In this document: piece by piece, positions 3,096-61,309 of the stretch | How positions within the stretch are numbered: position 1 is the stretch's first letter | Layout: the number at the start of each line of letters is the position of its first letter | NCBI GenBank assembly: GCA_009784235.1 | Contig: WRCC01000002.1 | Span: forward strand, 89,687-153,686 | Source: Alphaproteobacteria bacterium | Lineage (GTDB): Bacteria; Pseudomonadota; Alphaproteobacteria; Rs-D84 | Length of the DNA stretch: 64,000 bases | Direction of reading: 5' to 3' | The notes under the pieces: generated by a model | The model's input: only the letters and a program-made list of their open reading frames with translations | Database searches by the model: none | Told to the model about the DNA's origin: nothing | Made by a program: the position numbers and the translations under genes

Positions 3096-3440
3096 ATGAG
3101 AAAAATACTACTGTCTACTGTCTGCTGTCTACTGCTTGCCGCGTGCGGTGGGATATCTGCGGGCAAGGGTTCAGAAAATCTGGTTAAATTTAATAACGAA
3201 CCGACAGAATGCAGATTTTTGCATCGCATAGATGTTGATGTGTCGGCTTATAATGCCGAAGATGCGAATCAGTTCCTGCGTAATCGTATCGCGGCGCAAC
3301 CGGTTCACGGCAATGCATACTGGATTGTGTCAGAGCGTACCCGCCGGAACGAAGGCGCAGTATTTGGTCCAAAGAATACGTTCTATTTCACCGCGAATGT
3401 TTATGACTGCCCAAGTTCGGTCTTATATGGCAGGAAATAA
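3096..3440 (+). CDS. Small lipoprotein, paralogue 1
   Basis: MRKILLSTVCCLLLAACGG lipobox. Paralogous to the ORF at 3622..4014. The signal-peptide hydrophobic region is encoded by a CTACTGT heptamer array at 3108..3136. Confidence 0.6.
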   Translation: MRKILLSTVCCLLLAACGGISAGKGSENLVKFNNEPTECRFLHRIDVDVSAYNAEDANQFLRNRIAAQPVHGNAYWIVSERTRRNEGAVFGPKNTFYFTANVYDCPSSVLYGRK

Positions 3441-3445
3441 AATAA

Positions 3446-3566
3446 GTTCCCCTCCTTTGGAGGGGTGTTTTTTACGCGCAGCGTAAAAAATGGGGTGGTT
3501 TACCAAACTATCGGATGCACCGTAAACCACCCCGGCCTGCGGCCACCCCTCCAAAGGAGGGGAACT
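3446..3566. repeat. Palindromic element family P-A (full copy, nested hairpin)
   Basis: GTTCCCCTCCTTTGGAGGGGTG at 3446-3467 pairs with CCACCCCTCCAAAGGAGGGGAAC at 3544-3566. An inner GGGTGGTTTAC / GTAAACCACCC pair sits inside. A related partial copy lies inside mnmG at 35471..35514. Confidence 0.8.
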
Positions 3567-3621: not shown

Positions 3622-4014
3622 ATGAAAAAGATTTTAATGCTGTTGGCCGCAGCTGCCATCGCTGGTTGTGCGAATACCGTCGCGCCGACGAATGCGTCGC
3701 ATGGGCTGGTGAAATTGACGGGGGAGCCGATAAATTGCCAATTCTTGTACAGATTGGAAAACGAAGTTTCGGTTTACGGCGTTGATGATGCGGAACAGCA
3801 CTTGCGCAATAAAATCGCCGACCAAGTTCGCGGCGGCAATGCTTATTGGGTCGTATCAACACGCACCCGCCCGAATGAATGGGTGGTCTTTGGCCCCGAA
3901 CGCGCATTTGTCCAAGTCGCGAATGTTTATTCATGCCCGGATACACGAAATATCCAAACGCGCCAGCCGATGCAAGTGGTACAAGAATGTCCCCGCGACA
4001 TCGCATGTTATTAA
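3622..4014 (+). CDS. Small lipoprotein, paralogue 2
   Basis: MKKILMLLAAAAIAGCANT lipobox. Paralogous to the first lipoprotein (shared NCQFLYRLENEVSVYGVDDAEQHLRNKIA...GNAYWVVSTRTRPNE). Confidence 0.6.
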   Translation: MKKILMLLAAAAIAGCANTVAPTNASHGLVKLTGEPINCQFLYRLENEVSVYGVDDAEQHLRNKIADQVRGGNAYWVVSTRTRPNEWVVFGPERAFVQVANVYSCPDTRNIQTRQPMQVVQECPRDIACY

Positions 4015-4036
4015 AAACCGCCGTTCGGCGGTTTTT
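4013..4036. terminator. Bidirectional rho-independent terminator
   Basis: AAAAACCGCCGTTCGGCGGTTTTT hairpin flanked by A and T runs, between convergent lipoprotein 2 and infC. Confidence 0.7.
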
Positions 4037-4619
4037 ATTTCGTTGGGGCGATAATAATCGACTTTGTTCGCTCGTCCGGTTTGGATTTTGTTTCCAAAAT
4101 GCCTTTGTCGCCGATGATTGAAATTATACGGTCGAACAAAACCGGCACGGTATCACGGCCGCGCGCCAAGACTTTTTTACTGCCCTTTGTCATAACTGAA
4201 ATTTTAACCTTGTCGCCGTCGGCCAAAAATTCAAAAACCTTTTTCATCTTGATATTCATATCGTTTTCTTCGATAAATGGTTTTATCCAGACTTCTTTCA
4301 GTTCATTGGTTTTTTGGTTTTTGCGCTGTTCGGCGGCTTTTTTCTTTTGGTCATATTTGAATTTGCCGAAATCCATAATTTTTACAATCGGTGGCACATT
4401 GGTCGCATTAATTTCGACCAGGTCCATGTCAGCATCCATTGCAATCTGCAAAGCCGCCGGTGTCGGCATAATGCCCAGATTGGCGCCGGCGGCATCAATC
4501 ACTTGGACGCTTTTGGCGAAAATTTTATTGTTTATACGCGGGCCCATGTCCCGGCGGTTATCACGGTTGAATGGCGGTTTAATGTTAAGCTCCTTTGATT
4601 GCTTTGCCTGTATTTTCAA
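4035..4619 (-). CDS. infC: Translation initiation factor IF-3
   Basis: IF-3 signature: VQVIDAAGANLGIMPTPAALQIAMDADMDLVEINATNVPPIVKIMDFGKFKY. The true start may be internal, since infC classically uses AUU/AUA. Confidence 0.8.
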   Translation of the reverse strand: MKIQAKQSKELNIKPPFNRDNRRDMGPRINNKIFAKSVQVIDAAGANLGIMPTPAALQIAMDADMDLVEINATNVPPIVKIMDFGKFKYDQKKKAAEQRKNQKTNELKEVWIKPFIEENDMNIKMKKVFEFLADGDKVKISVMTKGSKKVLARGRDTVPVLFDRIISIIGDKGILETKSKPDERTKSIIIAPTK

Positions 4620-4625
4620 CTATTT

Positions 4626-5435
4626 TTATGCATTTTGCAACAATTTTTGCAAATTTTGCAACGCATCCCAAACATCGCGCTTGGAATCGGGTTTCAGCAG
4701 CATATAGTTCGGGTGCCAGATTGGGATAGTTCGAAATTCGAAATTCGAAATTCGAGATTCGAAAACTTTCCCATGGTCGGTGGGCAGTTTGGCGCTGGCG
4801 ATTTCTGTTGCGGCCAATGTCCCAAGGGTTAAAATTTTTTTTGCGTCGACCAATTCAATCGCGCGATTAACGAACGGTCGGCATAAATCCAATTCTTCGC
4901 GCGATGGCGTGCGTCCGCCTGGTGTTCGCCAGAATAACAATGGAATAATCGTGACCATATTGCGCTTGATTCCAATAGAGGATAACATTTTATCCAATAA
5001 TTCGCCCGCCGCACCCGTCATAATTTTTCCGGCCGCATCGTCGTCAGAAGAGGGCAGGTCGGTGATAATGGTGATTGGTGGTTGGTGCTGGTGGCTGGTG
5101 GTTGAAAATTGTGGTGGTACGAAATTAGCAAATGATGATAATGGATGGTTGTAATTTTTAATTGCGGCGCACAGTGATTCAAAATCCGCGCATGCGGATG
5201 CAGCTGCGTCCGCGGCGTCCAGCGCAGCATTGGTTGGTGTAACGGGAATAGGGGCAACCACAAAATCGCCTGGCGATTTTGTGGAGAGTTTAGAGTTGAA
5301 AGTTGAGATTTGAGAGTCATTGCTGCCTTTATCTAAACTCTTAGCCCTTAACTCTAAACTCTCCGGCGAGGCCGGCTCATCCAACTCCCACTTGATTCCG
5401 GCCAGTGCCAAATCCAACAAAGAATATTTTCCCAT
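4626..5435 (-). CDS. Uracil-DNA glycosylase family 4 (phage-polymerase-associated type) with N-terminal extension
   Basis: GxAGELLDKML...VTIIPLLFWRTPGGRTPSREELDLCRPFVNRAIEL...IWHPNYML motifs. ~120 aa low-complexity N-terminal extension. Contains TTCGAAA heptamer array H2. Confidence 0.7.
   Translation of the reverse strand: MGKYSLLDLALAGIKWELDEPASPESLELRAKSLDKGSNDSQISTFNSKLSTKSPGDFVVAPIPVTPTNAALDAADAAASACADFESLCAAIKNYNHPLSSFANFVPPQFSTTSHQHQPPITIITDLPSSDDDAAGKIMTGAAGELLDKMLSSIGIKRNMVTIIPLLFWRTPGGRTPSREELDLCRPFVNRAIELVDAKKILTLGTLAATEIASAKLPTDHGKVFESRISNFEFRTIPIWHPNYMLLKPDSKRDVWDALQNLQKLLQNA
4730..4764. repeat. Heptamer tandem array H2 (TTCGAAA x5) inside the UDG coding sequence
   Basis: ttcgaaa ttcgaaa ttcgaaa ttcgaga ttcgaaa. 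Translated in frame as FESRISNFEFRT. The reverse-complement array lies in mrcA at 53821..53855. Confidence 0.85.
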
Positions 5436-6199: not shown

Positions 6200-7957
6200 A
6201 TGGCCAAAAAATACCTTATATCTTCTGCATTACCTTATGTGAACAATATTCCACATATCGGGAATTTTGTGGGCAGTGTTTTGCCCGCCGATGTATATGC
6301 GCGGTTTATGCGCGCGCGTCATGGTGCGGAAAATGTCTTGTTTGTATGCGGCGCGGACGCGCACGGCACGCCGATTATTGTCAGCGCGAAAAAAGAGAGT
6401 ATGTCGGTCGAAGCATTAGTTGAAAAATACCACGCGATGCATTCCAAGATTTTTAATGATTTCAAAGTTTCTTTTGATGGTGGATATGGTTCGACACATA
6501 CGGAATTGCAGACAAAATTGGTTCATGATTTATTTACTGCGCTGGATAAAAATGGATTTGTCGAAGAAAAGACTACAATTCAGCCATTTTCAATCGATGA
6601 TAATATGTTTTTGGCTGACCGCCAGATAGAAGGTACTTGCCCGAAATGCGGCGACCCGCGTGCACGCGGCGACCAGTGTGATAAATGTGGCGAACTGCTG
6701 GACCCGGCGGATTTGATAAATCCATGTGTTGCGGATACAGGCAGCAAAAACATCGAAATGCGGGAAACAAAAAATCTTTTTTACCGTGCAGATTTGGTCA
6801 AAGATGACGTGAAAAAATGGGTTTTGGATACGGCCGAAAAAAATAAATGGTCACCGTCCGCGATTTCCGCCACGAAAAAGTATTTAACCGAAGATGTGCC
6901 AAATCCGTCGATTACACGCGATTTGCCATGGGGAATTCCGGTGAATAAACCCGGATATGAAAATAAAGTATTTTATGTCTGGTTTGATGCGCCATGGGGC
7001 TATATCTCGATTTCACAAGCAGCGCGACCAATCGCGCCGGAGCAAGGCGAAGGCGGAGAATCGCGCCGTAGCGATAGTGTAGGCGGATGGGCGGATTGGT
7101 GGCATGGCGGTGATAATTGCCATTATGCGCAATTTATGGGCAAAGATAATATAAAGTTTCATTCGCTGTTTTTCCCGGGGCAAGAGATTGCATGGCGGGA
7201 CGGAAATTGGAAAAAAGTCGATTTGTTAAAAGGACTTAATTTCCTGAATTTCGAAGGCGCGAAGATTTCAAAGTCCGCGGGTCACGGAATATTTTTGGAC
7301 GCGGCATTGGTGGATGCGCCGTCGGATGCATGGCGTTATGCTTTGATGGCAAGCGCGCCCGAAAGCGATGATACAGATTTCACAATCCAGCGATTTGCGG
7401 ATATCGTGAACAAAGACCTGAACGGGATGCTGGGCAATTTTGTGTCGCGTGCAACGAAATTGAGCGAGAAAAATTTTGGGAATACAGTTCCCGTAGGGGC
7501 GCATAGTTGCGCCCCAGGGCGCGAATACGCGCCCCTACGGGAATTGGAACAATCAATCAATTTCCGTCTGGCTGAATTAACTGATGCGTTGGAATCTTGC
7601 GAATTTCGTAAATCCGTGAACGCTTTGCGCGAATTATGGGCCGTCGGAAATGAATTTATGGCGAAAATGGAACCGTGGTCTATGGTCAAAAACGGCGATA
7701 TAGATGGTGCGGCGGCGGTTCTGAATGAATGTTTCCAATTGATAGATTTATATGCACGCGTATCTGCGCCGTTCATACCGGATGCAGCGACAAAAATGCA
7801 AAATATATTCGGCACTAAACGCGATTTGTCATGGCCGATTGAATACGAGCGCCGTGTTGAATCCGGCGAATTGTTCACCATTCCGGAAAACCTTTTTGAA
7901 AGAATCGACACCGATAAGGTCGAAAGCATGACCGCGAAATATGTTAAAAAATCATAA
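6200..7957 (+). CDS. metG: Methionyl-tRNA synthetase
   Basis: ISSALPYVNNIPHIGNFVGSVLPADVYARF class-I HIGH region. Zn-binding CPKCG...CDKCG knuckle. Carries an in-frame P-C palindromic insertion at 7493..7538 encoding VGAHSCAPGREYAPLR. Confidence 0.9.
   Translation: MAKKYLISSALPYVNNIPHIGNFVGSVLPADVYARFMRARHGAENVLFVCGADAHGTPIIVSAKKESMSVEALVEKYHAMHSKIFNDFKVSFDGGYGSTHTELQTKLVHDLFTALDKNGFVEEKTTIQPFSIDDNMFLADRQIEGTCPKCGDPRARGDQCDKCGELLDPADLINPCVADTGSKNIEMRETKNLFYRADLVKDDVKKWVLDTAEKNKWSPSAISATKKYLTEDVPNPSITRDLPWGIPVNKPGYENKVFYVWFDAPWGYISISQAARPIAPEQGEGGESRRSDSVGGWADWWHGGDNCHYAQFMGKDNIKFHSLFFPGQEIAWRDGNWKKVDLLKGLNFLNFEGAKISKSAGHGIFLDAALVDAPSDAWRYALMASAPESDDTDFTIQRFADIVNKDLNGMLGNFVSRATKLSEKNFGNTVPVGAHSCAPGREYAPLRELEQSINFRLAELTDALESCEFRKSVNALRELWAVGNEFMAKMEPWSMVKNGDIDGAAAVLNECFQLIDLYARVSAPFIPDAATKMQNIFGTKRDLSWPIEYERRVESGELFTIPENLFERIDTDKVESMTAKYVKKS
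7493..7538. repeat. P-C palindromic element inserted in-frame in metG
   Basis: GTAGGGGCGCATAGTTGCGCCCCAGGGCGCGAATACGCGCCCCTAC with extended flanks ttccc.../...gggaa. Near-identical to the intergenic copy at 5963..6015. Confidence 0.8.
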
Positions 7958-8492
7958 ATCAGAAATCATAAATCAGAAATTAGTTTTAATGTCATGTTGT
8001 GCGCCATGCAGCGCCGGTGCGATTGAGCAATTAAAAGGGCAGGGTGCAGATTTTTGCATCTTGTTTTACAACCCCAATATTTTCCCCGATACCGAATATC
8101 AAAAACGCCTTGCGGAACAAATAAAATTATGCGAATTGCTGGGCGTAAAATATCATGTCGGGGATTACAATCATGACGAATGGTTAAATTGCGTGCGCAG
8201 CATGGAAAATGAACCAGAACGGGGGTTGCGTTGCAGCGAATGTTTCAAAATGCGAATCAAATGGGGCGCGGATTGGGCACGTGCAAATGGATATGATGCA
8301 ATTGCGACCGTATTCGGCGTGTCGAAACATAAAGACCAAGCGCAAGTTGATGCCGCGGCACTTGCCGCTATTTGCGATTTAGAATATATCCCAATCAATA
8401 ACCAACCACCGCTACCCGCCACCAGTCACCAGAAGTTCTATCGCCAAAATTATTGCGGCTGTGAATACTCGATGAAAAAAAACGTGGGATAA
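7941..8492 (+). CDS. queH: Epoxyqueuosine reductase QueH (DUF208)
   Basis: LVLMSCCAPCSAG N-terminal motif. YRQNYCGCEYS at the C-terminus. Start uncertain: 7941 overlaps metG, or 7989. Confidence 0.65.
   Translation: MLKNHKSEIINQKLVLMSCCAPCSAGAIEQLKGQGADFCILFYNPNIFPDTEYQKRLAEQIKLCELLGVKYHVGDYNHDEWLNCVRSMENEPERGLRCSECFKMRIKWGADWARANGYDAIATVFGVSKHKDQAQVDAAALAAICDLEYIPINNQPPLPATSHQKFYRQNYCGCEYSMKKNVG
7949..7983. repeat. Heptamer tandem array H1 (AAATCAK x5) at the metG-queH junction
   Basis: aaatcat aaatcag aaatcat aaatcag aaattag. Contains the metG TAA stop at 7955-7957. Lies within the putative 5' end of the next ORF. Confidence 0.85.
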
Positions 8493-22805: not shown

Positions 22806-23885
22806 ATGGGAATTCTTAACAAATATTTCACAAAACAATTGGCGGCGTTTTTTATAATGCTGATGCTGGTATTGGCGGGATTGGCTTGGATGATGCAGAT
22901 TTTGACCATGCTGAAATTCTTGGTCCAATACGGTATTGATTTATGGGGATTTCTGGGCCTGACCATTTTAATGATTCCGTTCATCATATCCATCATTATG
23001 CCGTTTGTAATATTTATTGCGGTTTTGTTTATTTATAACAAGTTTATCGCAGACCGTGAAATTACCACAATGGCGGCCAGTGGCATATCGCCATTTCGTA
23101 TTGCAATGCCGGCAATCAAGTTGGCCGCGGTTATGACCGCAATACATTTGGCGCTGAATATTTGGATTGTGCCGGCGACCCAAGTAAAGTTTTATGATAC
23201 CCAATGGGAAATGCGATATGGATTGGCGCACTTGAAATTACAAGAAGCCACGTTCACACAAATGGCACCGGGTTTGGTTGTATTTGTTGAAAATGTTGCC
23301 GGACATGATTTGTCGAATTTAATGCTTTATGATAATCGTGGCGCGCGCGGCCAGATGGTTATTACGGCCGAAAAAGGCAAATTGGTGAATACTATCCGCG
23401 GTCTTTCGATTGTGATGAGTGGCGGCAGTATTCAGTACAGAGATGATAATTTCACCGTCGGAACATTTGATACATTTGATATGGATATGAATATGGCCGA
23501 CCGCGGCCAGAACAATGCGTTCCGCGTGCGTCGGGTATCAACCGGTGATTTAATCAGTTTGGCCGCGCACCCAAAAGGTTTATCGCCGCGCGAATTAAAA
23601 TCGATTATGGCCGAAGTTACGGCACGGTTCTTGGGTCCATTGATGAACATAATTTTGGTGCTTATTTGTATGGTTTTCATGTTAAAAACGTCACTGCTGC
23701 GCCGGGCCAGTTTTAATATGGCTGCACCGATGGCCGTGGGTGCAATGGCGGTGGCACAAACCGGATTTATGGCGATGTCGGATGCCGTTTTGGCGGTGCC
23801 GCATATATTAACACTGGGGGCCGCACAGATTATTGCAATCATAATGCTGTTTTACATATTGAAAAGTGACAGATTCCAATCATGA
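22806..23885 (+). CDS. LPS export ABC permease LptF/LptG family
   Basis: YjgP/YjgQ-type six-TM permease (KYFTKQLAAFFIMLMLVLAGLAWMMQ...). ATGA overlap with lptD. Confidence 0.75.
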   Translation: MGILNKYFTKQLAAFFIMLMLVLAGLAWMMQILTMLKFLVQYGIDLWGFLGLTILMIPFIISIIMPFVIFIAVLFIYNKFIADREITTMAASGISPFRIAMPAIKLAAVMTAIHLALNIWIVPATQVKFYDTQWEMRYGLAHLKLQEATFTQMAPGLVVFVENVAGHDLSNLMLYDNRGARGQMVITAEKGKLVNTIRGLSIVMSGGSIQYRDDNFTVGTFDTFDMDMNMADRGQNNAFRVRRVSTGDLISLAAHPKGLSPRELKSIMAEVTARFLGPLMNIILVLICMVFMLKTSLLRRASFNMAAPMAVGAMAVAQTGFMAMSDAVLAVPHILTLGAAQIIAIIMLFYILKSDRFQS

Positions 23886-25912
23886 AAAAATTAATCTATG
23901 CCTTATGCATTACGCCTTATGCCTTGGCTGCGCAAGCAGGCCTTATCGATATGAATGTGCCCAAAACAATTGTTGCAGAAAAAGTCGAATATGACGTACG
24001 TACACGGTCGGTTCAAACAAAGGGCGATACAACTGTATCAAATGAAACGGGCCAGCGTATGACATTGCGTGACGCATATATGGATGAAACCGGATTGCGC
24101 GCTGGCGGCGGAAATTTGGATTTAATACTGGGCTATCGCACGCGTGTGACGGCGCGGACTTTGCACAAAGATGCGCATATCACGACCGCCGAAGATGCGA
24201 CATATACCGCGTGTTATGCATGTGATGTCGATGTTAATGCCTGGGAAATATCCGCATCAGAATTCCGGCATGATAACGAGGCGCATTTGATGCATTTTGA
24301 TAATCCAGTATTTTGGGCGTATGGATTGCCGATATTTTGGGCGCCGTATTTGTCATATCCAGACCCGACGATTAAGCGCAAAAGTGGCTTGCTGATGCCG
24401 TATATGAACACAACAAATCAAATGGGAACCCAGTTTAATTTTCCGCTGTATTTGGCATTTTCGGATTATCATGACGCAACGTTGACGTCATCTTATCTGA
24501 CGGCTGAAAATCCATTATTTCAATTGGAACATCGATTGAATTATGACCGGTCGTCGTTCCGTACAACCGGGTCTTTTACCAAGAACAGGGAAGGGGACGA
24601 GCGATGGCATATATTCAACAAAGACCTGATTGAAATGGGCGACAATGTTCGCGCAAATGTTTTTGTTGAACGTACATCGGATAAATTATACCTGCAAAAA
24701 TATGGATTTTATGATTCGCGGCCGTATTTGGATTCCGGTGCGCGTGTCGAAGTATTTGGCGAATCCGCGTACGTTGTGGCCGACGCACACATATTCCAAG
24801 AACTTCGTTCAACGCCGTACAGCAATGTTTCAAATCCGTCCGGCGATATTTTGCCGAATATTCGCGGAACATTGCAATCAGACCCATTTTGGATGGATAC
24901 TTATTTTACATTAACCGGCGATATTATTGGAATCAGCAATATGGATAACAATGCCGCGGCACAGCGTATGCTGGGTATTGCGCGGGTCACATCGCCATGG
25001 ACGATATGGCTTGGTCAAAAATTAACATTGTCCGCGTCTGTTCGATATGACGTTTATCATTTTATGAATACAGATATGTTGGATGGTACGACAGACTTTA
25101 CGGGCGTGCGTGCACGGTTTTTGCCATCTGGTTATGCCGATTGGTCGTGGCCGTTTATGAAATCTGGCGATGATTGGATTCATGTCGTGGAACCACGTGT
25201 GCGTGTTACGGTAAAAAATACACTCGATTCGCCGGCGTTTGCGAATATCGATTCGTCGGGTTCGTTATTATCCGATGCAACTTTGTTTGCGGATAATCGT
25301 TTGTCCGGTTATGACTTGTGGGAAAACGGCAGCTATATAGATTACGGTATGGGATGGACGGCTTATTCAAATGATGCGATAACGCTGTCTGCGTTCGCCG
25401 GCCAATCGTATGATTTCGCACCGCCAATTGATTTGGACCCGAATTCCGGATTCCATGATGGCGCATCTGATTATGTTGGACGGTTGTCAGCGGATTATCG
25501 CGGATTGCTTTCTGTAAATAACCGGTTCCGATTCGCACAACGAGATTTGACATTGCGTCACCTTGAATCAGTCGGTAAAATCGGTGGACGCAATTATGTC
25601 GAAGTTGGGTACATCCGCGCGACACAATTATTGGACGCGGTTACAATTGATAAAGTTAATAACGAAATTGTCGGCGGGTTCGGCATTGGATTTACCGAAC
25701 GGTTGTCATTACAGGCACGCACGATATACAACGTGACCGATAATCGTATTCAACAGCAAAGTGCCAGCTTGTATTACGACCATCCGTGTTATATAGTCCA
25801 GCTGGGCTATTCCAAAGACGGCGCGGTTCGGTATAATGTTGATGGTTCAAACTATGTTGGCCGTACGACATTCCATCTGCGGTTTGCTTTGAAGATTACA
25901 GAAACTAAATAG
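23882..25912 (+). CDS. lptD: LPS assembly outer-membrane protein LptD
   Basis: Signal peptide. OstA N-terminal domain. Large beta-barrel C-terminal domain (OstA_C-like). Gene order lptF-lptD-surA. Confidence 0.8.
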   Translation: MKKLIYALCITPYALAAQAGLIDMNVPKTIVAEKVEYDVRTRSVQTKGDTTVSNETGQRMTLRDAYMDETGLRAGGGNLDLILGYRTRVTARTLHKDAHITTAEDATYTACYACDVDVNAWEISASEFRHDNEAHLMHFDNPVFWAYGLPIFWAPYLSYPDPTIKRKSGLLMPYMNTTNQMGTQFNFPLYLAFSDYHDATLTSSYLTAENPLFQLEHRLNYDRSSFRTTGSFTKNREGDERWHIFNKDLIEMGDNVRANVFVERTSDKLYLQKYGFYDSRPYLDSGARVEVFGESAYVVADAHIFQELRSTPYSNVSNPSGDILPNIRGTLQSDPFWMDTYFTLTGDIIGISNMDNNAAAQRMLGIARVTSPWTIWLGQKLTLSASVRYDVYHFMNTDMLDGTTDFTGVRARFLPSGYADWSWPFMKSGDDWIHVVEPRVRVTVKNTLDSPAFANIDSSGSLLSDATLFADNRLSGYDLWENGSYIDYGMGWTAYSNDAITLSAFAGQSYDFAPPIDLDPNSGFHDGASDYVGRLSADYRGLLSVNNRFRFAQRDLTLRHLESVGKIGGRNYVEVGYIRATQLLDAVTIDKVNNEIVGGFGIGFTERLSLQARTIYNVTDNRIQQQSASLYYDHPCYIVQLGYSKDGAVRYNVDGSNYVGRTTFHLRFALKITETK

Positions 25913-25921
25913 GAAACGGGC

Positions 25922-26755
25922 ATGAAGAAATTATTGTGGACTTTTTACTTTTTACTTTTTGCTGTGCCTGCAAATGCAGGTACAGTTGTTGCATCCATAA
26001 ACGGTACGCCGATTACGGATACGGATGTGACCGCGCGCACGCGACTGATGTCTTTCCAAGGGCAATCCGGAACGGATAATCGCCGCCGCGCGCTATCGAA
26101 TATTATCGATGACCATATTAAATTGGCATACGCGGAAAGCATGCGCATTGTCCCAGCGGACAGCGATGTAAAAACTGAATTCGAAGGCATTCAGCGCAGC
26201 GGGTTTGACGCATCAAAATTGACGGCCAGTGATACTGCAATGCTGACCACCGCTGTGCGTGCTAATATCGCGTGGCAAATGGTAATTGGTCGCACAATTA
26301 TGCCAACCATTGATGTTACCGATGAAGACATTGCGACCGAACGCCGTGAATTGGCCCGTGAACGCGGATTGCCGATTGAAATGACATTTATTCGCCTGGT
26401 TGATATACCAACGGATGTTGCATCGCGTCTGACGCGCCCATCATCTTGTGACGGCGCGATGGATATGGCGCGTGATTTGGGTGGCTGGCCACAGCGTATG
26501 ACTGTGCTGCAATACGAATTGTCTGCGGATGTGCGCACCGTTTTGGTTGATTTGGCGCCGATGACTTGGTCGCGCCGGATTGATGGCAATGTATTCTTGG
26601 TATGCAGCACAAAAAGAACCAAAGAATGGGGACAATTGGACGACATTATAAAACAAAACGCGATGTTTCGCCGTGCATCATTCCAAGCAGACCAGCAATT
26701 AAAACAATTGCGCCGCCGCGCAGTAATAGTAATCACTGATGACAGATATAAATAA
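25922..26755 (+). CDS. SurA N-terminal-domain chaperone-like protein (no obvious PPIase domain)
   Basis: Signal peptide. SurA_N-like region (INGTPITDTDV...). Short at 277 aa. Position downstream of lptD. Confidence 0.55.
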   Translation: MKKLLWTFYFLLFAVPANAGTVVASINGTPITDTDVTARTRLMSFQGQSGTDNRRRALSNIIDDHIKLAYAESMRIVPADSDVKTEFEGIQRSGFDASKLTASDTAMLTTAVRANIAWQMVIGRTIMPTIDVTDEDIATERRELARERGLPIEMTFIRLVDIPTDVASRLTRPSSCDGAMDMARDLGGWPQRMTVLQYELSADVRTVLVDLAPMTWSRRIDGNVFLVCSTKRTKEWGQLDDIIKQNAMFRRASFQADQQLKQLRRRAVIVITDDRYK

Positions 26756-36443: not shown

Positions 36444-39400
36444 ATGAAATACCCAGAAACAAAACCAAAGGCAAATTTTCCGGAAATGGAACACCAGATT
36501 TTAAAATTCTGGCGTGACCATGATATTTTCCACAAATCTTTGGATGCAACGGCGAACGGCGCGCCGTTCACTTTCTATGATGGTCCGCCATTTGGAAATG
36601 GGTTGCCGCATTGGGGGCATTTGGGTGTTTCGGCCGTCAAAGACATGGTTCATCGTTATCAAACAATGCGCGGTCGTCACGTGGAACGCGAATTGGGTTG
36701 GGATTGTCATGGGTTGCCGGCGGAAAATTCAGTTGAAAAAGCACAAAATCGCAAATCCAAGGATATCGTTGAATCCGATGGCATGGCGGCGTTCTGTGAG
36801 ATGTGTCGCGTTGATGTGCAAACGTACGTCAAAGAATGGGAACGCTTTATTGAACGCATGGGTCGTTGGGTGGATATTGGTGATGATTTGGGATACCGCA
36901 CAATGGATAAAAATTATATGGAATCCATGCTGTGGACCATCAAGGAATTGCGTAACAAAGGTTTGCTGTACAAAGATTATCGCGTGAATCCGTTCGATTG
37001 GGTAAATGGCACGGTGCTGAGCAATTCCGAAGCATCCAGCGATTACCGAGAAGTGATTGATGACGCGATAACAGTCTGGTTTGAATTGATGGATGGTCGT
37101 CGCATTTTGGCATGGACAACAACGCCGTGGACTTTGCCGGGAAATTCAGCATTGGCTGTAAATCCGAAATTAACGTATGCCGTGATGCGCGATAGCGATG
37201 GTGCGGAATATATCATCGCAGAATCACGTTTGGGGAATTACGAAAAACAATTGGCGAATGCCGAACGTGTCGGCACGGTTATGGGCGCGGATTTGGTTGG
37301 TTTAAAATATAAACCGCTGTTTGATTATTATAACGATGCAAAATTGCATAACATTATCGCGGGCGGATTTGTGTCGGACGATTCGGGTACCGGTATCGTT
37401 CATATCGCGCCGGCGTTCGGTGAAGACGATTTCTGGGCGCTGAAAGACAATGACCCAGAATTTCCAGTAATTGTTAATGTTGATAATTATGGAAATTTTG
37501 ATGCGACTGTGCGTGATTTTTCGGGTGAAAATATTTTTGCCGCAAATCCAAAAATTATTGCTAACTTGAAAGAACGCGGGCACCTGGTTAAAAAAGAACA
37601 ATACAAGCACGCATATCCGTATGGCGACCGCAGTAAAGAAAAATTAATCTATCGCGCGACGGAATCCTGGTACATCAATGTTCCGAAAATTAAAGACAAA
37701 TTATTAATAAATAATGAATTGGTTACATGGACATCGGCCGGCGAACGTTTCCGCGCTTGGATTGAAAACGCGCGGCCTTGGTCGATTTCGCGCAATCGTT
37801 TCTGGGGCGTGCCATTGCCAATTTGGGCGCGCGGCGATGAATATAAAATATTTGGTTCAATCGCTGAATTGCAGGAATTTTTTGGCGTTGAAATTCACGA
37901 CCTGCATCGGCCGACGATGGATGCTTTGACCAAAGACGGCTGGACGCGTATTCCAGATGTTCTGGATTGCTGGGTCGAGTCCGGTTCAATGCCGTGGGCG
38001 TCGCTGCATTATCCGTTTGACCCATCATCGCACAGTGATTTCGATGCTGAATTACCAAAAAACTTTCCGGCAGATTATATTATCGAAGGCCAAGACCAAA
38101 CCCGTGGATGGTTTTATTCGCTGATGGTCCTTGCGACCGCATTGTTCGATAAACCCGCGTTCATAACCGTGTCTGCGAACGGCATGGTTGTTGATGAACA
38201 CAAGAAAAAGTTTTCAAAATCCGTTGGCAATTATGTAAACCCAGAACAACAGATTGAACAGTTCGGCGCGGATGCGATTCGCTTGTTTATACTGGGTTCC
38301 AATTTTATGAAAGCCGAACCAGTTCCAATGGATAAAGAAGGCAAAGTGTTTGGTGAGCCAACAAAAAATATCCTGGTGCCGCTGTGGAATGCTTATCATT
38401 TCTTTACGCTTTACGCCAACGCCGGCGCGGTAACCGCGCAGGAGACAGTAGACAGTAGACAGTCAGAAAATGTTCTGGATAAATACATATTGGCCGAACT
38501 TAACGACTTGACTGGCGTGGTGCGTGGTGCGCTGGATGAATATAAACCGGACGCTGCGCTGCGCGGCATGACGTCGTTCTTGGAAATCTTAAATAATTGG
38601 TATATCCGTCGTTCGCGGGAGCGTTTCTGGAACGAAGAACAATCCGCGTTCGACACACTGCATTTCGTGTTGGTCAAATTCACAAAATTACTGGCACCAT
38701 TTGCACCATTTGTAAGTGACCATATTTTCAGAAACTTAACGGACCCGGAAAATAAAAAAATGGATACTTCCGTGCATCTTGAAAAATTCCCGGAAAATGA
38801 ATCACATGCATTTGACAGCAAGGAATCATTCATTCTGGATACAATGCGATATATTCAGCAAATTGTTTCAGTTGGAAAACAGCTGCGTGAAAAACATGCA
38901 CTAAGAAACAGGTTGCCGTTAAATAATATTTCAATTTATGGCACATCGATAAATCTTGGCGATTATGCACTGGATATAATCAAAGGCGAATTGAATGTAA
39001 AAAATGCTGAAAATAAAACTACTGGTCTGGAAAACGTTGCTGATTCGTTTGTATATCTTATCACGCCGAAAATCGGTGCGCGGTTGGGTGCAGGCTTAAA
39101 AGAAATCATGACTGCATCAAAACAGCCAGGATTTGACCCGGTGGCACATGGATTGTTGCCCGATGAATACGAAATGCGCCTGACCGTAAAACCCGGAATC
39201 ACCGGGGCGGCGCTGCCGGATAATACCGCGGTGGTTGTTTTGGATACAAATGTGACACCGGAATTATTGGCGACAGGATTGGCCAACGATGCACTTCGTT
39301 TTATCCAAGATACGCGCAAAGCAATGGACTTGGATGTTTCCGACCGGATAACTTTGACCGTGTCGGGCGATATGGAATTGTTGACCGCGCTGGATACACA

Positions 39401-40396: not shown

Positions 40397-41626
40397 TTAT
40401 TCATATCTCAGCGAATCAATCGGATTCAACCGCGCGGCTTTCAGTGCCGGAAACACACCCGATGCAATACCAACGACCACGGCGACGATTACGGATAGTA
40501 TTACCGCATATATACTTATCGGTGCGGTATAATTCAATAACATTGGCACGAATATTTTTGATAATACAATGCCCAGTACCATGCCGAACATACTGCCCAT
40601 AAATGAAATCAAAACCGATTCGGACAAGAATTGAACAATTATGTGTTTTTCTTTGGCGCCGATGGCTTTCCTGATTCCGATTTCGCGTGTGCGTTCTGCG
40701 ACCGACACCAGCATCATATTCATAATCCCAATTGACCCAACCAACAGCGATACTGACGCAATCGACACCAACAACATCCGCATAAATCCGGCGATGGTGT
40801 TCATTGTTTCCATAACCTGGCGCATGTCCATAATCTGAAAATCATCTGGTTCATCATCACGCAATCTGTGACGTTCGCGCAGTATCGTCGTAATCTGTTC
40901 AGTTACCAAATGATTGTCCGCGTCCGGAAATAATCGCAGCATAATCATTTGGACCGCGTCCGGAAAACGTCCACCCCATATACGTTTGGTCAGCGTGGTC
41001 AGCGGGATAATAAGCATATCATCTTGGGAACCCATCATAGAATCGCCGCGTTCGCGCAGCATGCCAATAATAACAAACGGTACGTTGTTAACACGTACGG
41101 TTTGTCCGACTGGATTTTCCGGCAAATCAAGTTCGGCGGCAGTCTTTGGCCCGATTACAGCAAACGTTGATGCATTGCGAAGCGCGCTTTGGTCGAAAAA
41201 AGTACCGTATTCCATTTCAACATTTTGCACTGTTGCCCAATCTGGATGTGTTCCGATAACCTGGGTTGTCCAGTTGCGGTTACCGAACACGGCCTGGGTT
41301 GAAATTTGACGCACTGGTGCGACCGCGTTAACATCAGGCAAACGGCCCAGCACGGCCGCAGATTGCACGGTAAGGGTTTGACGCATGCCGGTGCGAATGC
41401 CACCGGTTTGCGCCGCGCCTGCGCGAACGATAATTGTATTAGTGCCCAGCGAAGAAAACTGGTCATCGATTTGTTTCTGAACCGTTTCGCCAAGTGTCAC
41501 CATGACCACAACGGCCATAACACCAATAATAATGCCCAGAATTGTTAATATGGAACGAACTTTGTTGCCGGAAATCGACAACCATGATTCTTTGAGTATA
41601 TCGTTGAATGTCATTGCTCTCTCCAT
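40397..41626 (-). CDS. ABC transporter permease (MacB/FtsX family, standalone permease)
   Basis: N-terminal TM. Large periplasmic domain. Three C-terminal TMs (FtsX). The start codon lies inside an H1 heptamer array. Confidence 0.75.
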   Translation of the reverse strand: MERAMTFNDILKESWLSISGNKVRSILTILGIIIGVMAVVVMVTLGETVQKQIDDQFSSLGTNTIIVRAGAAQTGGIRTGMRQTLTVQSAAVLGRLPDVNAVAPVRQISTQAVFGNRNWTTQVIGTHPDWATVQNVEMEYGTFFDQSALRNASTFAVIGPKTAAELDLPENPVGQTVRVNNVPFVIIGMLRERGDSMMGSQDDMLIIPLTTLTKRIWGGRFPDAVQMIMLRLFPDADNHLVTEQITTILRERHRLRDDEPDDFQIMDMRQVMETMNTIAGFMRMLLVSIASVSLLVGSIGIMNMMLVSVAERTREIGIRKAIGAKEKHIIVQFLSESVLISFMGSMFGMVLGIVLSKIFVPMLLNYTAPISIYAVILSVIVAVVVGIASGVFPALKAARLNPIDSLRYE

Positions 41627-41708
41627 TTATGATTTCTGATTTATGATTTATGGTTGCATAGGCTGATACAGCGTCAAACCAAATCATAAATCAGAAATCA
41701 GAAATCTT
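41625..41708. repeat. Inverted pair of H1 heptamer arrays at a same-strand gene junction
   Basis: atttatg atttctg atttatg atttatg (41625-41652), 27 bp near-palindromic spacer, then aaatcat aaatcag aaatcag aaatctt (41681-41708). Contains the permease ATG and the thioesterase stop. Confidence 0.85.
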
Positions 41709-48472: not shown

Positions 48473-49185
48473 TATATTGTCATCCCGTTGGTGACATAAA
48501 GAGTTCCATCGTCCGACCAGATTTTGCCACCCGATTCGTTTACAATCAATTCCCCGGCGGCCAATTCGGCATAATCCAATGGTTCGGACACAAATGCATC
48601 GAATTTTCCAGATGCAACCCATGCCAAATCCAGGGCGGGGCAGCCAGTAACACGAAAGTTTGAAGTTTGAAGTTTGAAGTTTGAAGTTTGGGAGTTCAAC
48701 CCAACCATCAAATCACGAGTTTCAACTTTTTCTTTGGATACATGAATTCTGGTTGAATGGAATGCATTGAAAATAAATGCACCATGCCCCAGTTCCGCAT
48801 AATACAAGCGGTCTTCAATCGGTGCATAAATCAGTGCGATTTTGGTTTCATCGTTTTGGCGCAGCGCCAACGATATCGCAAAATGTGGATTTCCGCGCAC
48901 GAAATTCGCAGCACCGGACAATGACAAAACAAATTCCGAAATCCCGCCGCCATCACGCGATACGTTCGGTGTCAAAATGCCGGCAGTCGGCCGCACCAGC
49001 GACAAATCGGATAGAATCATTTCTTCGATTCGCGTTTGTGCTTTATTTACAAAATCGGTCGCGGATTTTAATGATTGTTGCAGATTTTCAACTTCGGAAA
49101 AATCACGACGCAAACCAGTCGCAGTCCGCTGCAACGCAGCGAACATCTGGTTTAATTCCGAAGAGCCCTTGATTACATTTTCCAT
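48472..49185 (-). CDS. suhB: Inositol monophosphatase (SuhB) homologue lacking catalytic acidic residues
   Basis: IMPase fold motifs AAGELIVNESGG and DLAWVASGKFDAF retained. Metal-binding EE and DPxDGT replaced (PNVSRDGGGISE; LSLSGAANF). AAGTTTG heptamer array at 48656..48683 in frame. Confidence 0.65.
   Translation of the reverse strand: MENVIKGSSELNQMFAALQRTATGLRRDFSEVENLQQSLKSATDFVNKAQTRIEEMILSDLSLVRPTAGILTPNVSRDGGGISEFVLSLSGAANFVRGNPHFAISLALRQNDETKIALIYAPIEDRLYYAELGHGAFIFNAFHSTRIHVSKEKVETRDLMVGLNSQTSNFKLQTSNFRVTGCPALDLAWVASGKFDAFVSEPLDYAELAAGELIVNESGGKIWSDDGTLYVTNGMTI
48656..48683. repeat. Heptamer array H4 (AAGTTTG x4) in-frame in suhB
   Basis: aagtttg aagtttg aagtttg aagtttg, then degenerate ggagttc. 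Encodes the duplicated peptide QTSNFKLQTSNFR. Confidence 0.85.
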
Positions 49186-52862: not shown

Positions 52863-52897
52863 AAACAAAGGGCGCAAATATGCGCCCTTTGTTTTTA
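52861..52897. terminator. Bidirectional terminator
   Basis: AACAAAGGGCGCAAATATGCGCCCTTTGTT flanked by A and T runs. Confidence 0.7.
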
Positions 52898-53206
52898 TTC
52901 TGTTACACATTCGATTGTTTCAGAATCATCAATAATCAAAATCCAATCTTTGCCTTTGTTCCAGGCGACGATTGCAACGCCTTCGAACGTGCCGGCATAT
53001 CGCACGCCAGATGCACTTTCCGTTTTAATTAATGTGATTCCTTGCATATCGACGGTGGCGACAATTTTATCTTTGAATATTTTTGCCGCAATATCAAAAT
53101 CGCCACATTTCATTTTTACGGTTTCCGCTGGTTGTTCAGTGCACGCAGCCAACAAGCCCATAGCAAAAAGTCCACAGACCATAGTAAATAGTAATTGTTT
53201 TCTCAT
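52895..53206 (-). CDS. MliC-family lipoprotein (lysozyme-inhibitor-like)
   Basis: Lipobox LLAACTE. Conserved SASGVRY and WNKGKDW..C motifs of the MliC family. Confidence 0.5.
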   Translation of the reverse strand: MRKQLLFTMVCGLFAMGLLAACTEQPAETVKMKCGDFDIAAKIFKDKIVATVDMQGITLIKTESASGVRYAGTFEGVAIVAWNKGKDWILIIDDSETIECVTE

Positions 53207-59822: not shown

Positions 59823-59857
59823 AAATCAGAAATCACAAACCCAAAATCATAAATCTA
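59823..59857. repeat. Heptamer array H1 at the rluD 3' end
   Basis: aaatcag aaatcac aaaccca aaatcat aaatcta. Contains the rluD TGA stop. Confidence 0.7.
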
Positions 59858-60842
59858 GGATTTCTTTCAGTTCCAGCATATCGTCGGGCAGCTTTGATTT
59901 AAATTTCATTTTTTCACCGGTAATCGGGTGCGATAATTCCAGTAATTCTGCATGCAGCATCTGCATATTATGCGTTTTTATGAATTCCAATAATTCTGGG
60001 TTTTTGACACTGCCGAACCTGGTGCTGCCGCGGCCGTATGTCGGGTCGCACAATACCGGAAATCCGTGCGCGGACAAATGCACGCGAATCTGATGCGTAC
60101 GCCCTGTGCCCAGCGTGCACCGGAATTCAGAAACACCGTTTCGCGACCAAGCATTTAAAACAACGACCGATGTGTGTGCTTCCTTGCCGCCGACCTTGAC
60201 CATTGTCATTTTTTGGCGGTTGTGTGTGCTGCGCCCGATATTGCCTGAAATATCCGCGGATTCCCAATTCGGAACGCCCCAAACAAATGCAACATATTTC
60301 CGCACCAAATCATGCGCGGCGAATGTTTTTACCAATTCGCGATACGCCGCGTCGGTTTTTGCCAAGATGACAACGCCGGATGTACCCTTGTCCAACCTGT
60401 GCACAACGCCTGGACGTGTATCGCCGCCAATATCGGCCAATGTGGTATGCGTTAAAACAGCGTGAACCAAAGTATCTGTTTCATTGCCTGCACCTGGATA
60501 CATTGCAATCCCGCGTGGTTTGTTCACGACGATGATGTCATTGTCTTCGAATAAAATTTCCAGGTCGGTATTCGGTAGACAGTAGTCAGTAGACAGTAGA
60601 GATTTATCTTGTTTTACAGGAATCGCAACCGAAAATTCATCACCGGGTTTTATTTTTTCCGACAATTTTACTGTTAACTGTCTACTGTCTACTGTCGGCT
60701 TTTTTATTTCAAATTTCTGAATTTCTGTGCGGGAAAAATCCGGCATTTGTACGGCAAGAAATTTATCCAGTCGCATTCCGGTATCATCTTCGGTAACGAT
60801 AAAATTTCTTATTTCGGCGGCCATTGTGTTATCTTGTTCCAA
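59847..60842 (-). CDS. rluD: 23S rRNA pseudouridine synthase RluD (RluA family with S4 domain)
   Basis: S4 domain (MRLDKFLA). Catalytic HRLDKGTSGVVILAKT. Two inverted GACAGTA heptamer arrays inside the coding sequence (60575..60602, 60668..60695). Confidence 0.8.
   Translation of the reverse strand: MEQDNTMAAEIRNFIVTEDDTGMRLDKFLAVQMPDFSRTEIQKFEIKKPTVDSRQLTVKLSEKIKPGDEFSVAIPVKQDKSLLSTDYCLPNTDLEILFEDNDIIVVNKPRGIAMYPGAGNETDTLVHAVLTHTTLADIGGDTRPGVVHRLDKGTSGVVILAKTDAAYRELVKTFAAHDLVRKYVAFVWGVPNWESADISGNIGRSTHNRQKMTMVKVGGKEAHTSVVVLNAWSRNGVSEFRCTLGTGRTHQIRVHLSAHGFPVLCDPTYGRGSTRFGSVKNPELLEFIKTHNMQMLHAELLELSHPITGEKMKFKSKLPDDMLELKEILDL
60575..60695. repeat. Inverted pair of H3 heptamer arrays inside rluD
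   Basis: gtagaca gtagtca gtagaca gtagaga (60575-60602) and ttactgt taactgt ctactgt ctactgt (60668-60695), ~65 bp apart. Encode KSLLSTDYCLP and PTVDSRQLTVK. Confidence 0.8.
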
Positions 60843-61309
60843 TCATCACCATGTTCGCAATTTTCCAGACGAACAATCAATCTGCCGGACATTTGTTCAA
60901 CATCGCAAGTCATTATTCCGCGTGTACGTGCTTGGGTTGCACGACTGTCTGCTTCGCGCCATGCCAATACCAATTGTGTCGGTGGCAGCAGACATGTGAC
61001 ACTCATCCGTGCATCGCGGTTTTCGAAAAATCTTTCCGTTGGGCCGACCCAAATACGGACATTTTCGGTCTGGCCATAACATGGAAATCCGTCCAAGTAA
61101 TATATTTCTGTACCAATGCTGCTGGTGCGTCGTTCCGACCCAAACCAAATATCATATGGCGCCAGACGTAATCCGGTGACGGCTTCCCAATCTGAACTGG
61201 TCGAAAATATAGACGCAATTGGACCGCAAACGGGCGGCGGCGGTGTCGCGGCATTTGCCACAGCAAAAAGTAAAAAGTAAAAGGTAAAAAGTAAATAAGT
61301 TTTCTTCAT
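60809..61309 (-). CDS. Hypothetical secreted protein
   Basis: Signal peptide MKKTYLLFTFYFLLFAVANA. Its hydrophobic region is encoded by an AAAAAGT heptamer array (61265..61299). Confidence 0.4.
   Translation of the reverse strand: MKKTYLLFTFYFLLFAVANAATPPPPVCGPIASIFSTSSDWEAVTGLRLAPYDIWFGSERRTSSIGTEIYYLDGFPCYGQTENVRIWVGPTERFFENRDARMSVTCLLPPTQLVLAWREADSRATQARTRGIMTCDVEQMSGRLIVRLENCEHGDDWNKITQWPPK
61265..61299. repeat. Heptamer array H5 (AAAAAGT x5) encoding a signal-peptide hydrophobic region
   Basis: aaaaagt aaaaagt aaaaggt aaaaagt aaataag. Confidence 0.8.

Follow-up and report, generated by a model that had tools for sequence, protein, structure and literature searches.

Tandem heptamers write signal-peptide cores in a termite-gut alphaproteobacterium, probably through a clade-specific repeat process rather than as an export switch

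Two genes for exported proteins in a 64,000-nt stretch of an Alphaproteobacteria bacterium genome (assembly GCA_009784235.1, contig WRCC01000002.1; the whole stretch is called the window here) have the hydrophobic cores of their signal peptides written in tandem 7-nt repeats. They encode a 114-aa lipoprotein (3096..3440, plus strand) and a 166-aa secreted protein (60809..61309, minus strand), and they raise the question of how such heptamer arrays came to occupy signal-coding DNA and whether changes in unit number could turn the two proteins on and off, as the first-pass annotation of the window had suggested. The arrays are probably the products of a heptamer-generating or heptamer-copying mutational process that is specific to this bacterial clade, with selection as a filter, and signal-peptide cores would be places that accept them particularly readily. 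This reading is based on the enrichment of period 7, the restriction to one clade, the enrichment in signal peptides, the equal length of ancestral signals, the stop-free orientation of the arrays and their coincidence with insertion-like loops. The two focal arrays themselves would then be ordinary fixed coding sequence, lacking a regulatory role of their own.

The lipoprotein gene begins with ATG AGA AAA ATA CTA CTG TCT ACT GTC TGC TGT CTA CTG CTT GCC GCG TGC, encoding MRKILLSTVCCLLLAAC ahead of GG. This signal peptide (3096..3146), read from the sequence, consists of an n-region (MRK), a hydrophobic h-region and the lipobox LAAC. The h-region residues LLSTVCCLL are encoded by a solitary imperfect CTACTGT array of 3.9 copies (3108..3134; period 7 with 90% matches in Tandem Repeats Finder, TRF), the units being CTACTGT (3108-3114), CTACTGT (3115-3121), CTGCTGT (3122-3128) and CTACTGC (3129-3135), with a longest pure tract of 2.3 units. 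Scored as matches over 21 comparisons, the 5′ end of the gene reaches 18/21 for period 7; the period-6 and period-9 scores at 3108 are 5 and 7. The MRK-ILLSTVCCLL-LAAC layout, with its basic n-region, h-region and lipobox, is that of a lipoprotein signal peptide and is kept in the 50 homologues found, in whose alignment the lipobox cysteine is invariant. These homologues come from gut Alphaproteobacteria, including 'Candidatus Enterousia' metagenome-assembled genomes (MAGs) and termite-gut MAGs, and a metagenome scan with the lipoprotein yielded one locus among the matches listed, already in the compared set. No Pfam match was found for the protein, and the fold of its mature domain weakly matches RcsF and YdgH/DUF1471 (E ~1e-2). 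A tandem paralogue (3622..4014), 46% identical, follows the gene; both belong to a small two-cysteine family found in this search in gut Alphaproteobacteria only, and the heptamer-encoded signal is present in the first paralogue only.

The gene for the 166-aa protein lies upstream of, and overlaps, a gene for an RluD-type (RluA family) pseudouridine synthase. Its 5′ end, ATG AAG AAA ACT TAT TTA CTT TTT ACC TTT TAC TTT TTA CTT TTT GCT GTG GCA AAT GCC, encodes MKKTYLLFTFYFLLFAVANA, a Sec-type signal peptide with an A-N-A cleavage motif (61250..61309, minus strand; read from the sequence). Within it, TYLLFTFYFLLF is encoded by a solitary imperfect array of five ACTTTTT units on the coding strand (61265..61300, minus strand; TRF period 7, 5.0 copies, 89% matches), whose longest pure tract is 2.6 units; the period-7 score of this 5′ end is 19/21. 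The MKK-TYLLFTFYFLLFAV-ANA layout is that of a Sec signal peptide and is kept in 17 homologues, 18 having been found in all. The protein has no Pfam match and no significant fold match in the PDB. In both AlphaFold2 models the array-encoded N-terminus has a lower predicted local distance difference test score (pLDDT) than the core, as befits a cleaved signal: residues 5-24 of the lipoprotein are below 50 with a core above 90, and the N-terminus of the 166-aa protein, modelled as a helix, is at about 60-70 with a beta-rich core at about 90. Each array thus covers the h-region, and the original observation that these cores are written in heptamers holds for both genes.

Further signal peptides in the window are built in the same way. 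About 13 signal peptides were picked by eye among the open reading frames (ORFs), and in four of them a strong array (17 to 19/21) lies precisely on the h-region, compared with one of about 49 other N-termini (Fisher's exact p = 0.006). That sole other N-terminus belongs to QueH, whose array precedes the Pfam domain. Internal 120-nt coding windows have a median period-7 score of 9, and only 6 of 389 reach 17. The two additional strong cases are neighbours on the plus strand: in LptD (23882..25912; Pfam LptD, E = 2.8e-36), YALCITPYAL is encoded by an imperfect TATGCCT array of four units (23897..23925; TRF), and in a SurA-like protein (25922..26755), TFYFLLF is encoded by three exact ACTTTTT units (25940..25960; TRF). 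Weaker periodicity, TTACTAT TTACTAT GGTCTGT with a score of 15/21, is found in the signal of a MliC-family lipoprotein identified by Pfam (gene 52895..53206, repeats 53174..53194, minus strand). The signal-peptide arrays begin 9 to 18 nt past the ATG, after the basic n-region, and end ahead of the cleavage motif. LptD and the SurA-like chaperone are encoded by what we take to be essential or housekeeping envelope genes.

Arrays of this kind are not confined to signals. TRF detects about 25 period-7 arrays in the 64 kb, and with a simple match/mismatch score at a cut-off of ≥12 there are 11, compared with 0.2 expected from dinucleotide shuffles; among the periods 3 to 15 compared, every other period gives zero arrays at this cut-off, except 14. 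Period-7 arrays are therefore over-represented with respect both to shuffles and to other periods. Several units recur, so that the unit families proposed at first are genuine: CTACTGT at 3108, 38439, 60575 and 60669, ACTTTTT at 25940 and 61265, AAATCAG/T at 7949, 41625, 41681 and 59823, TTCGAAA/T at 4730 and 53821, and AAGTTTG at 48656 and 10553. At least 15 distinct units are present in the window and at least 30 across the relatives; none in either set is TAACTGA or GGGAATC, and a search for a common motif among them gave a loose tendency to A3/T3 runs only, with no consensus. To our knowledge, none of the units here matches those of the short tandemly repeated repetitive (STRR) sequences. 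In a scan of the window against Rfam, only four tRNAs were found, and no known RNA family overlaps any array.

The heptamers are also unevenly distributed among related bacteria. Comparison of 157 kb from termite-gut relatives with 754 kb from vertebrate-gut relatives (sequences from relatives or other assemblies bear L-numbers below) gave 40 and 7 arrays, respectively, a difference in density of about 27-fold, and no period other than 7 is elevated in the termite-gut set, indicating that the heptamer habit is specific to the termite-gut clade. Comparable arrays are present in at least 8 related genomes. The window itself is also part of a 498-kb ENA contig, and its sequence occurs in termite-gut metagenomes from JGI, Logan assemblies and two Alphaproteobacteria bacterium MAGs at NCBI. 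Because the same arrays are found in these independent ENA, JGI, Logan and NCBI assemblies, an assembly artefact was rejected.

A simpler explanation would be chance or codon usage, namely that low-complexity, Leu/Phe-rich h-regions happen to look periodic. It is true that h-regions are T-rich and that period-7 scores among vertebrate-gut homologues go as high as 13/21; the window scores of 17 to 19/21, however, exceed those of all 40 vertebrate-gut homologues, and codon repetition would predict period 3, 6 or 9, against which stand the low period-6 and period-9 scores at 3108. Together with the 11 arrays observed against 0.2 in shuffles, this makes a chance origin extremely improbable. A chance or codon-repeat origin was accordingly rejected on the shuffles, the homologue scores and the internal coding windows.

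If the arrays are real, they may have created the signals, lengthened them or only rewritten them. The annotation had favoured generation or lengthening by repeat expansion, which fails for both genes that it named, since their homologues carry equivalent signals, and holds, as lengthening, for a relative. A lipobox signal is present in 50 of 50 lipoprotein homologues with the cysteine at residue 15-19 (Cys17 in the window), all full-length homologues of the 166-aa protein carry signals of 19-23 aa, and in the window's SurA-like protein a conserved anchor is preceded by 20 residues, the commonest value among 120 homologues. With three units deleted, the lipoprotein would be left with MRKILLLAAC or the 166-aa protein with MKKTYLLFAVANA, too short for a signal, so the array is the h-region itself and no addition to it, and an older h-region has been overwritten. 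Lengthening is seen in L073, where the LptD signal carries an orthologous array of five exact TTTATGC units, of the same unit family as the imperfect TATGCCT array in the window, and, where the two signals can be compared, exceeds that of the window by 3 residues; the SurA-like signal of L073 and L074, with five TTCATTA units, exceeds the mode of the 120 homologues by about 11 residues. The top three period-7 scores among the 50 lipoprotein signals (window 18, L009 15 and L014 15) all come from the termite clade and have different units, suggesting that the h-region of this family was probably rewritten in heptamers more than once.

Whether unit number could act as an on/off switch is the next question. 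The opa genes of Neisseria, in which such tracts are found, encode surface adhesins that form a family and are dispensable. There, (CTCTT)n lies in the leader-coding part of the ORF, its copy number sets the frame, and pure CTCTT tracts switch at about 1e-3 per generation (PMC3745409). An opa-type contingency system would here require slipped-strand mispairing to change the heptamer number and so reversibly toggle an exported protein, and the geometry agrees with this, in that a tandem repeat with a unit length not divisible by 3 lies in the hydrophobic, 5′ leader-coding part of an ORF for an exported protein (PMC3745409). The frame arithmetic of the first-pass annotation is also sound: a change of one or two units would truncate both focal proteins, giving out-of-frame products of 25 to 106 aa, and a change of three units keeps the frame. 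Simple sequence repeats (SSRs) are known to concentrate at the 5′ ends of ORFs, a pattern interpreted as phase variation (Lin and Kussell, as cited in PMC4692102), and the LptD array differs in copy number between species, with four imperfect units in the window and five exact units in L073.

The switch proposal is nevertheless unsupported, and a contingency role is very unlikely. The pure tracts of 2.3 and 2.6 units compare with 13 to 38 copies in characterised heptamer switches (PMC2651432), and the point differences built up between units argue against rapid turnover. All of the roughly 17 in-ORF arrays examined are in frame. Arrays occur also in LptD, the SurA-like protein, isoleucyl-tRNA synthetase (IleRS), the RluD-type pseudouridine synthase, uracil-DNA glycosylase (UDG) and inositol monophosphatase (IMPase), in which an off state would in our judgement be harmful; a restriction to dispensable genes is thus not what was found. 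No length variant was seen among 11 contigs (at least 6 samples) and two NCBI MAGs, gathered as exact-protein matches of the lipoprotein, ParB, a 163-aa neighbour, the pseudouridine synthase and the 166-aa protein, nor in the 90% clusters of ten array-bearing proteins, whose other members are alternative starts or partial sequences with no in-frame length variants; this is a weak test of polymorphism because all of this material is ≥99.95% identical to the window and represents one strain. Compared with opa, whose tracts are pure, longer, measurably unstable and of a 5-nt unit, the arrays here have 2 to 3 pure 7-nt units, show no variation within the one strain compared and lie also in the LptD and SurA-like genes. 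The heptamer switches of Haemophilus influenzae, which act in the hmw1A/hmw2A promoters and as (AATTTTG)14 within an hmw ORF (PMC2651432), resemble the present arrays in unit length and in their association with exported adhesins whose frame or expression is set by copy number; they differ in having 13 to 38 pure copies and documented strain differences, as against 3 to 5 imperfect copies here, with no variation within the one strain compared. A true switch would have given a gut symbiont that is uncultured a contingency system resembling opa, a reading that the evidence does not support.

One further observation concerns the ACTTTTT array at 61265. Two Logan contigs of different runs, L064 (SRR10512951) and L066 (SRR10512950), stop at the identical base within it, at about window position 61266. 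These contig ends may reflect an assembly-graph branch caused by copy-number heterogeneity, which would favour contingency, or k-mers common to another array.

The arrays that lie inside proteins show how such sequences are accommodated. Arrays overlap ORFs in 17 of the 23 cases covered by the location tally in the window (the TRF listing holds about 25); by contrast, 13 of 15 are intergenic in L072. In IleRS, CAGTAGA units, the CTACTGT family on the other strand, encode QETVDSRQS in a linker (38439..38463, plus strand; TRF and Pfam); the array replaces nine linker residues with the length unchanged and aligns without gaps to different residues in L014. Two arrays of the CTACTGT family lie on the minus strand within the pseudouridine synthase ORF, one encoding SLLSTDYCLP (60575..60600) and the other PTVDSRQLTV (60669..60696), and they form the two arms of an inverted pair (hairpin z = -4.8); both arms are insertions relative to L072. 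In the UDG gene, the array at 5332 falls on a 7-aa (21-nt) insertion that three orthologues lack, and two other arrays lie in length-variable regions.

Eleven arrays have units that are free of stop codons on one strand only, and nine of them are oriented so that this strand is the one translated. The two exceptions are cut short or contain a variant unit that removes the stop, as in the pseudouridine synthase arm at 60669, where ACA GTA GAC AGT AGA CAG TTA has TTA in the position where an in-frame TAG would fall. This orientation, with the exceptions mended, indicates that the arrays are translated and have been filtered by selection.

Several genes with internal arrays deserve a separate description. 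The UDG gene (4626-5435, minus strand) holds four arrays, two of which (5284-5317 and 5332-5362) form an inverted pair in an N-terminal extension; the NCBI call for UDG is 211 aa and starts past the N-terminal arrays, though the long N-terminus is conserved in relatives. An AAATCAT/AAATCAG array at 7949-7980 covers the stop codon of methionyl-tRNA synthetase and the first 14 codons called for QueH, which has 6 extra residues in the window relative to L012 and L014 and whose Pfam domain begins at residue 14. At 48656-48690, five exact AAGTTTG units (35 nt) lie within an ORF of the inositol-monophosphatase family and encode QTSNFKLQTSNF; as the purest in-ORF array, it is the best candidate for genuine copy-number instability. 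The array at 53821, with 4.6 copies, is likewise pure.

A different possibility is that arrays near start codons are cis-acting nucleic-acid elements that work on the mRNA or the DNA, either as targets of a protein whose footprint is a heptamer or as hairpin arms that govern translation, processing or stability, and that their coding of h-regions is a tolerated side effect. By our own tally, 60 nt or less separates a start codon from about 8 of the 23 arrays, although such positions account for 11.6% of the sequence. Hairpin-forming inverted pairs are present in the window at 60575/60669 (z = -4.8), at 41625/41681 (z = -4.9) and at 5284/5332 in UDG, and inverted array pairs are also found in L070, L072 and L073. 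In L073, the LptD and SurA-like arrays pair with an upstream inverted array, such that the signal h-region is the downstream arm and the ribosome-binding site and start codon lie in the loop (z = -5.3 and -7.0), and all eight arrays of that sequence lie in four gene-boundary hairpins. The pseudouridine synthase pair changes its unit on both arms jointly between the window and L070, and the TAACTGA repeats of Beggiatoaceae, located just upstream of starts, have been proposed as translation regulators (PMC4679880). For the window's signals the case is poorer: none of the four signal-peptide arrays has an inverted partner or forms a hairpin of this kind, the array at 3108 having no inverted match within 250 nt and no RNA structure (z = -0.03) and that at 61265 no inverted partner and a predicted-structure z of -1.0. 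The units are highly diverse, with no single binding motif evident, and many arrays lie mid-gene or at 3′ ends. A primary cis-acting role is therefore considered unlikely, although less so than a contingency switch.

The paired arrays have features of their own. In L073 the four hairpins stand at successive gene junctions (628-716, 1812-1938, 3925-4074 and 4870-5012), namely those of lptF/G, lptD, the surA-like gene and the next gene. In the pseudouridine synthase ORF (59847-60824, minus strand), the inverted CTACTGT arms flank the conserved segment KLSEKIKPGDEF; L070 has arms at the same two sites (2583-2601 and 2666-2692) with the unit CACCTGT on both (z = -6.4), and L072 has neither arm. 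The difference between the window and L070 is a case of concerted or compensatory change affecting a hairpin that is built of repeats and lies in coding sequence. The pair at 41625-41652 and 41681-41706, inverted AAATCAT/G arms that are 96% complementary (z = -4.9), lies in an 800-nt intergenic region directly upstream of an ABC-permease-like gene (40397-41626, minus strand), whose start codon it overlaps. REP/REPIN-type dispersed hairpin repeats, reportedly treated by Bertels and Rainey in 2011, are similar to the paired arrays alone, in which inverted arms of about 25-35 nt and a spacer form a long hairpin, mostly at gene boundaries and at several loci. The arms here differ in being 7-periodic, in belonging to many families per genome and in that they may flank a conserved coding spacer within an ORF; moreover, both focal arrays are solitary.

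Some arrays appear to have moved between sites. An identical imperfect 31-nt array, AATGAATAATGAATAGTGAATAATGAATAAT, is present at L029:13408-13438 and L073:3930-3960 with unrelated flanks, the two sequences probably being from the same or a closely related genome. Within the window, the signals of the SurA-like protein (25922-25981) and the 166-aa protein (61250-61309, minus strand) share 24 nt of ACTTTTT array plus GCTGTG(CCT)GCAAATGC. SurA-like homologues typically have PANA as their c-region, and ANA is atypical for the 166-aa family, which suggests that one signal core may have been copied onto the other gene. Shared array and shared signal DNA together suggest copying of arrays between loci, beyond expansion in place. 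A stronger version would hold the arrays to be a distinct, actively propagating micro-element of the termite-gut clade, either solitary or in inverted pairs with arms that change together, that is copied between loci, writes new 7-residue modules into proteins, swaps or overwrites signal cores among unrelated exported proteins and builds hairpins at start codons and gene junctions, with a possible effect on operon expression; this we consider rather improbable, if somewhat less so than a primary cis-acting role.

On the mutational-process reading preferred here, arrays would arise genome-wide in the termite-gut alphaproteobacterial clade and would apparently be copied between sites, by slippage that favours 7-nt units, by ectopic copying or template switching, or by both. 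Selection would retain those that keep the frame, are stop-free on the coding strand and translate into tolerated residues. Three units, being read in all three frames, yield 7 residues, and T-rich stop-free units such as CTACTGT, ACTTTTT and TATGCCT give hydrophobic residues in every frame, which would make the loosely constrained h-region between MKK/MRK and the cleavage motif an especially permissive landing place. The window arrays would have replaced an existing h-region with the signal length unchanged and then decayed by point mutation.

Several points weigh against this reading. The generating mechanism is one that we infer. If slippage proceeded unit by unit in an essential ORF, the intermediates would be frameshifted, so that multi-unit events, compensating indels or patch copying have to be assumed, and the length-neutral replacement seen in the signals and in IleRS is awkward for pure expansion. 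Arrays are enriched about 3-fold within 60 nt of start codons generally, again by our own tally; with the start-codon hairpins of L073, this makes a regulatory role at the mRNA level possible. The two Logan contigs that stop in the 61265 array could reflect copy-number heterogeneity.

Known heptamer repeats provide partial parallels. In the account of Mrazek 2007 given in PMC4679880 and PMC4692102, many bacteria of scattered taxonomy have heptamers in greater excess than any other long-unit SSR, an excess attributed to polymerase slippage with a proposed footprint of about 7 nt. The present genomes resemble those so summarised in that period 7 stands out among long-unit SSRs and in that the taxonomy is scattered; as far as these summaries go, the GGGAATC of Xanthomonas and GGGGAYT of Nostoc are mainly intergenic, G-rich and single-unit cases, in contrast to the window with its many A/T-leaning units and most arrays in ORFs and translated. 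The cyanobacterial STRR and TAACTGA repeats share with the present arrays short lengths (2 to 6 copies), positions often near starts and a restricted phylogeny (PMC4679880). Those repeats are limited to between one and three defined units and nearly always lie between genes, with 25 exceptions among the 170 TAACTGA sets of Beggiatoaceae (PMC4679880), whereas here dozens of units occur and the arrays enter coding sequence, often as inverted pairs. Relative to the STRR, TAACTGA and GGGAATC cases, the new features are the many units, the predominance of coding arrays and the frequency of pairs.

The window offers a natural example of a non-triplet microsatellite process that remodels proteins and survives mainly in signal cores, loops and linkers. 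If the arrays are copied between loci or act as hairpin regulators, the clade would become a new model in which to study how very small repeats originate and spread. Practical consequences also follow for annotation. Gene callers disagree on starts near arrays (UDG 211 vs 269 aa; L073 LptD 669 vs 689 aa), assemblies may break at arrays, as the two contigs that stop within one array illustrate, and unrelated genes whose signal peptides look alike can be mistaken for homologues.

Repeats of another kind lie next to the first focal gene. Between the two lipoprotein paralogues there are two inverted copies of a GC-rich hairpin, at 3444-3470 (CCCCTCCTTTGGAGGGG) and 3541-3566 (CCCCTCCAAAGGAGGGG). 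The first is followed by a T-run and is terminator-like, and one Logan contig stops at 3552, within the second copy.

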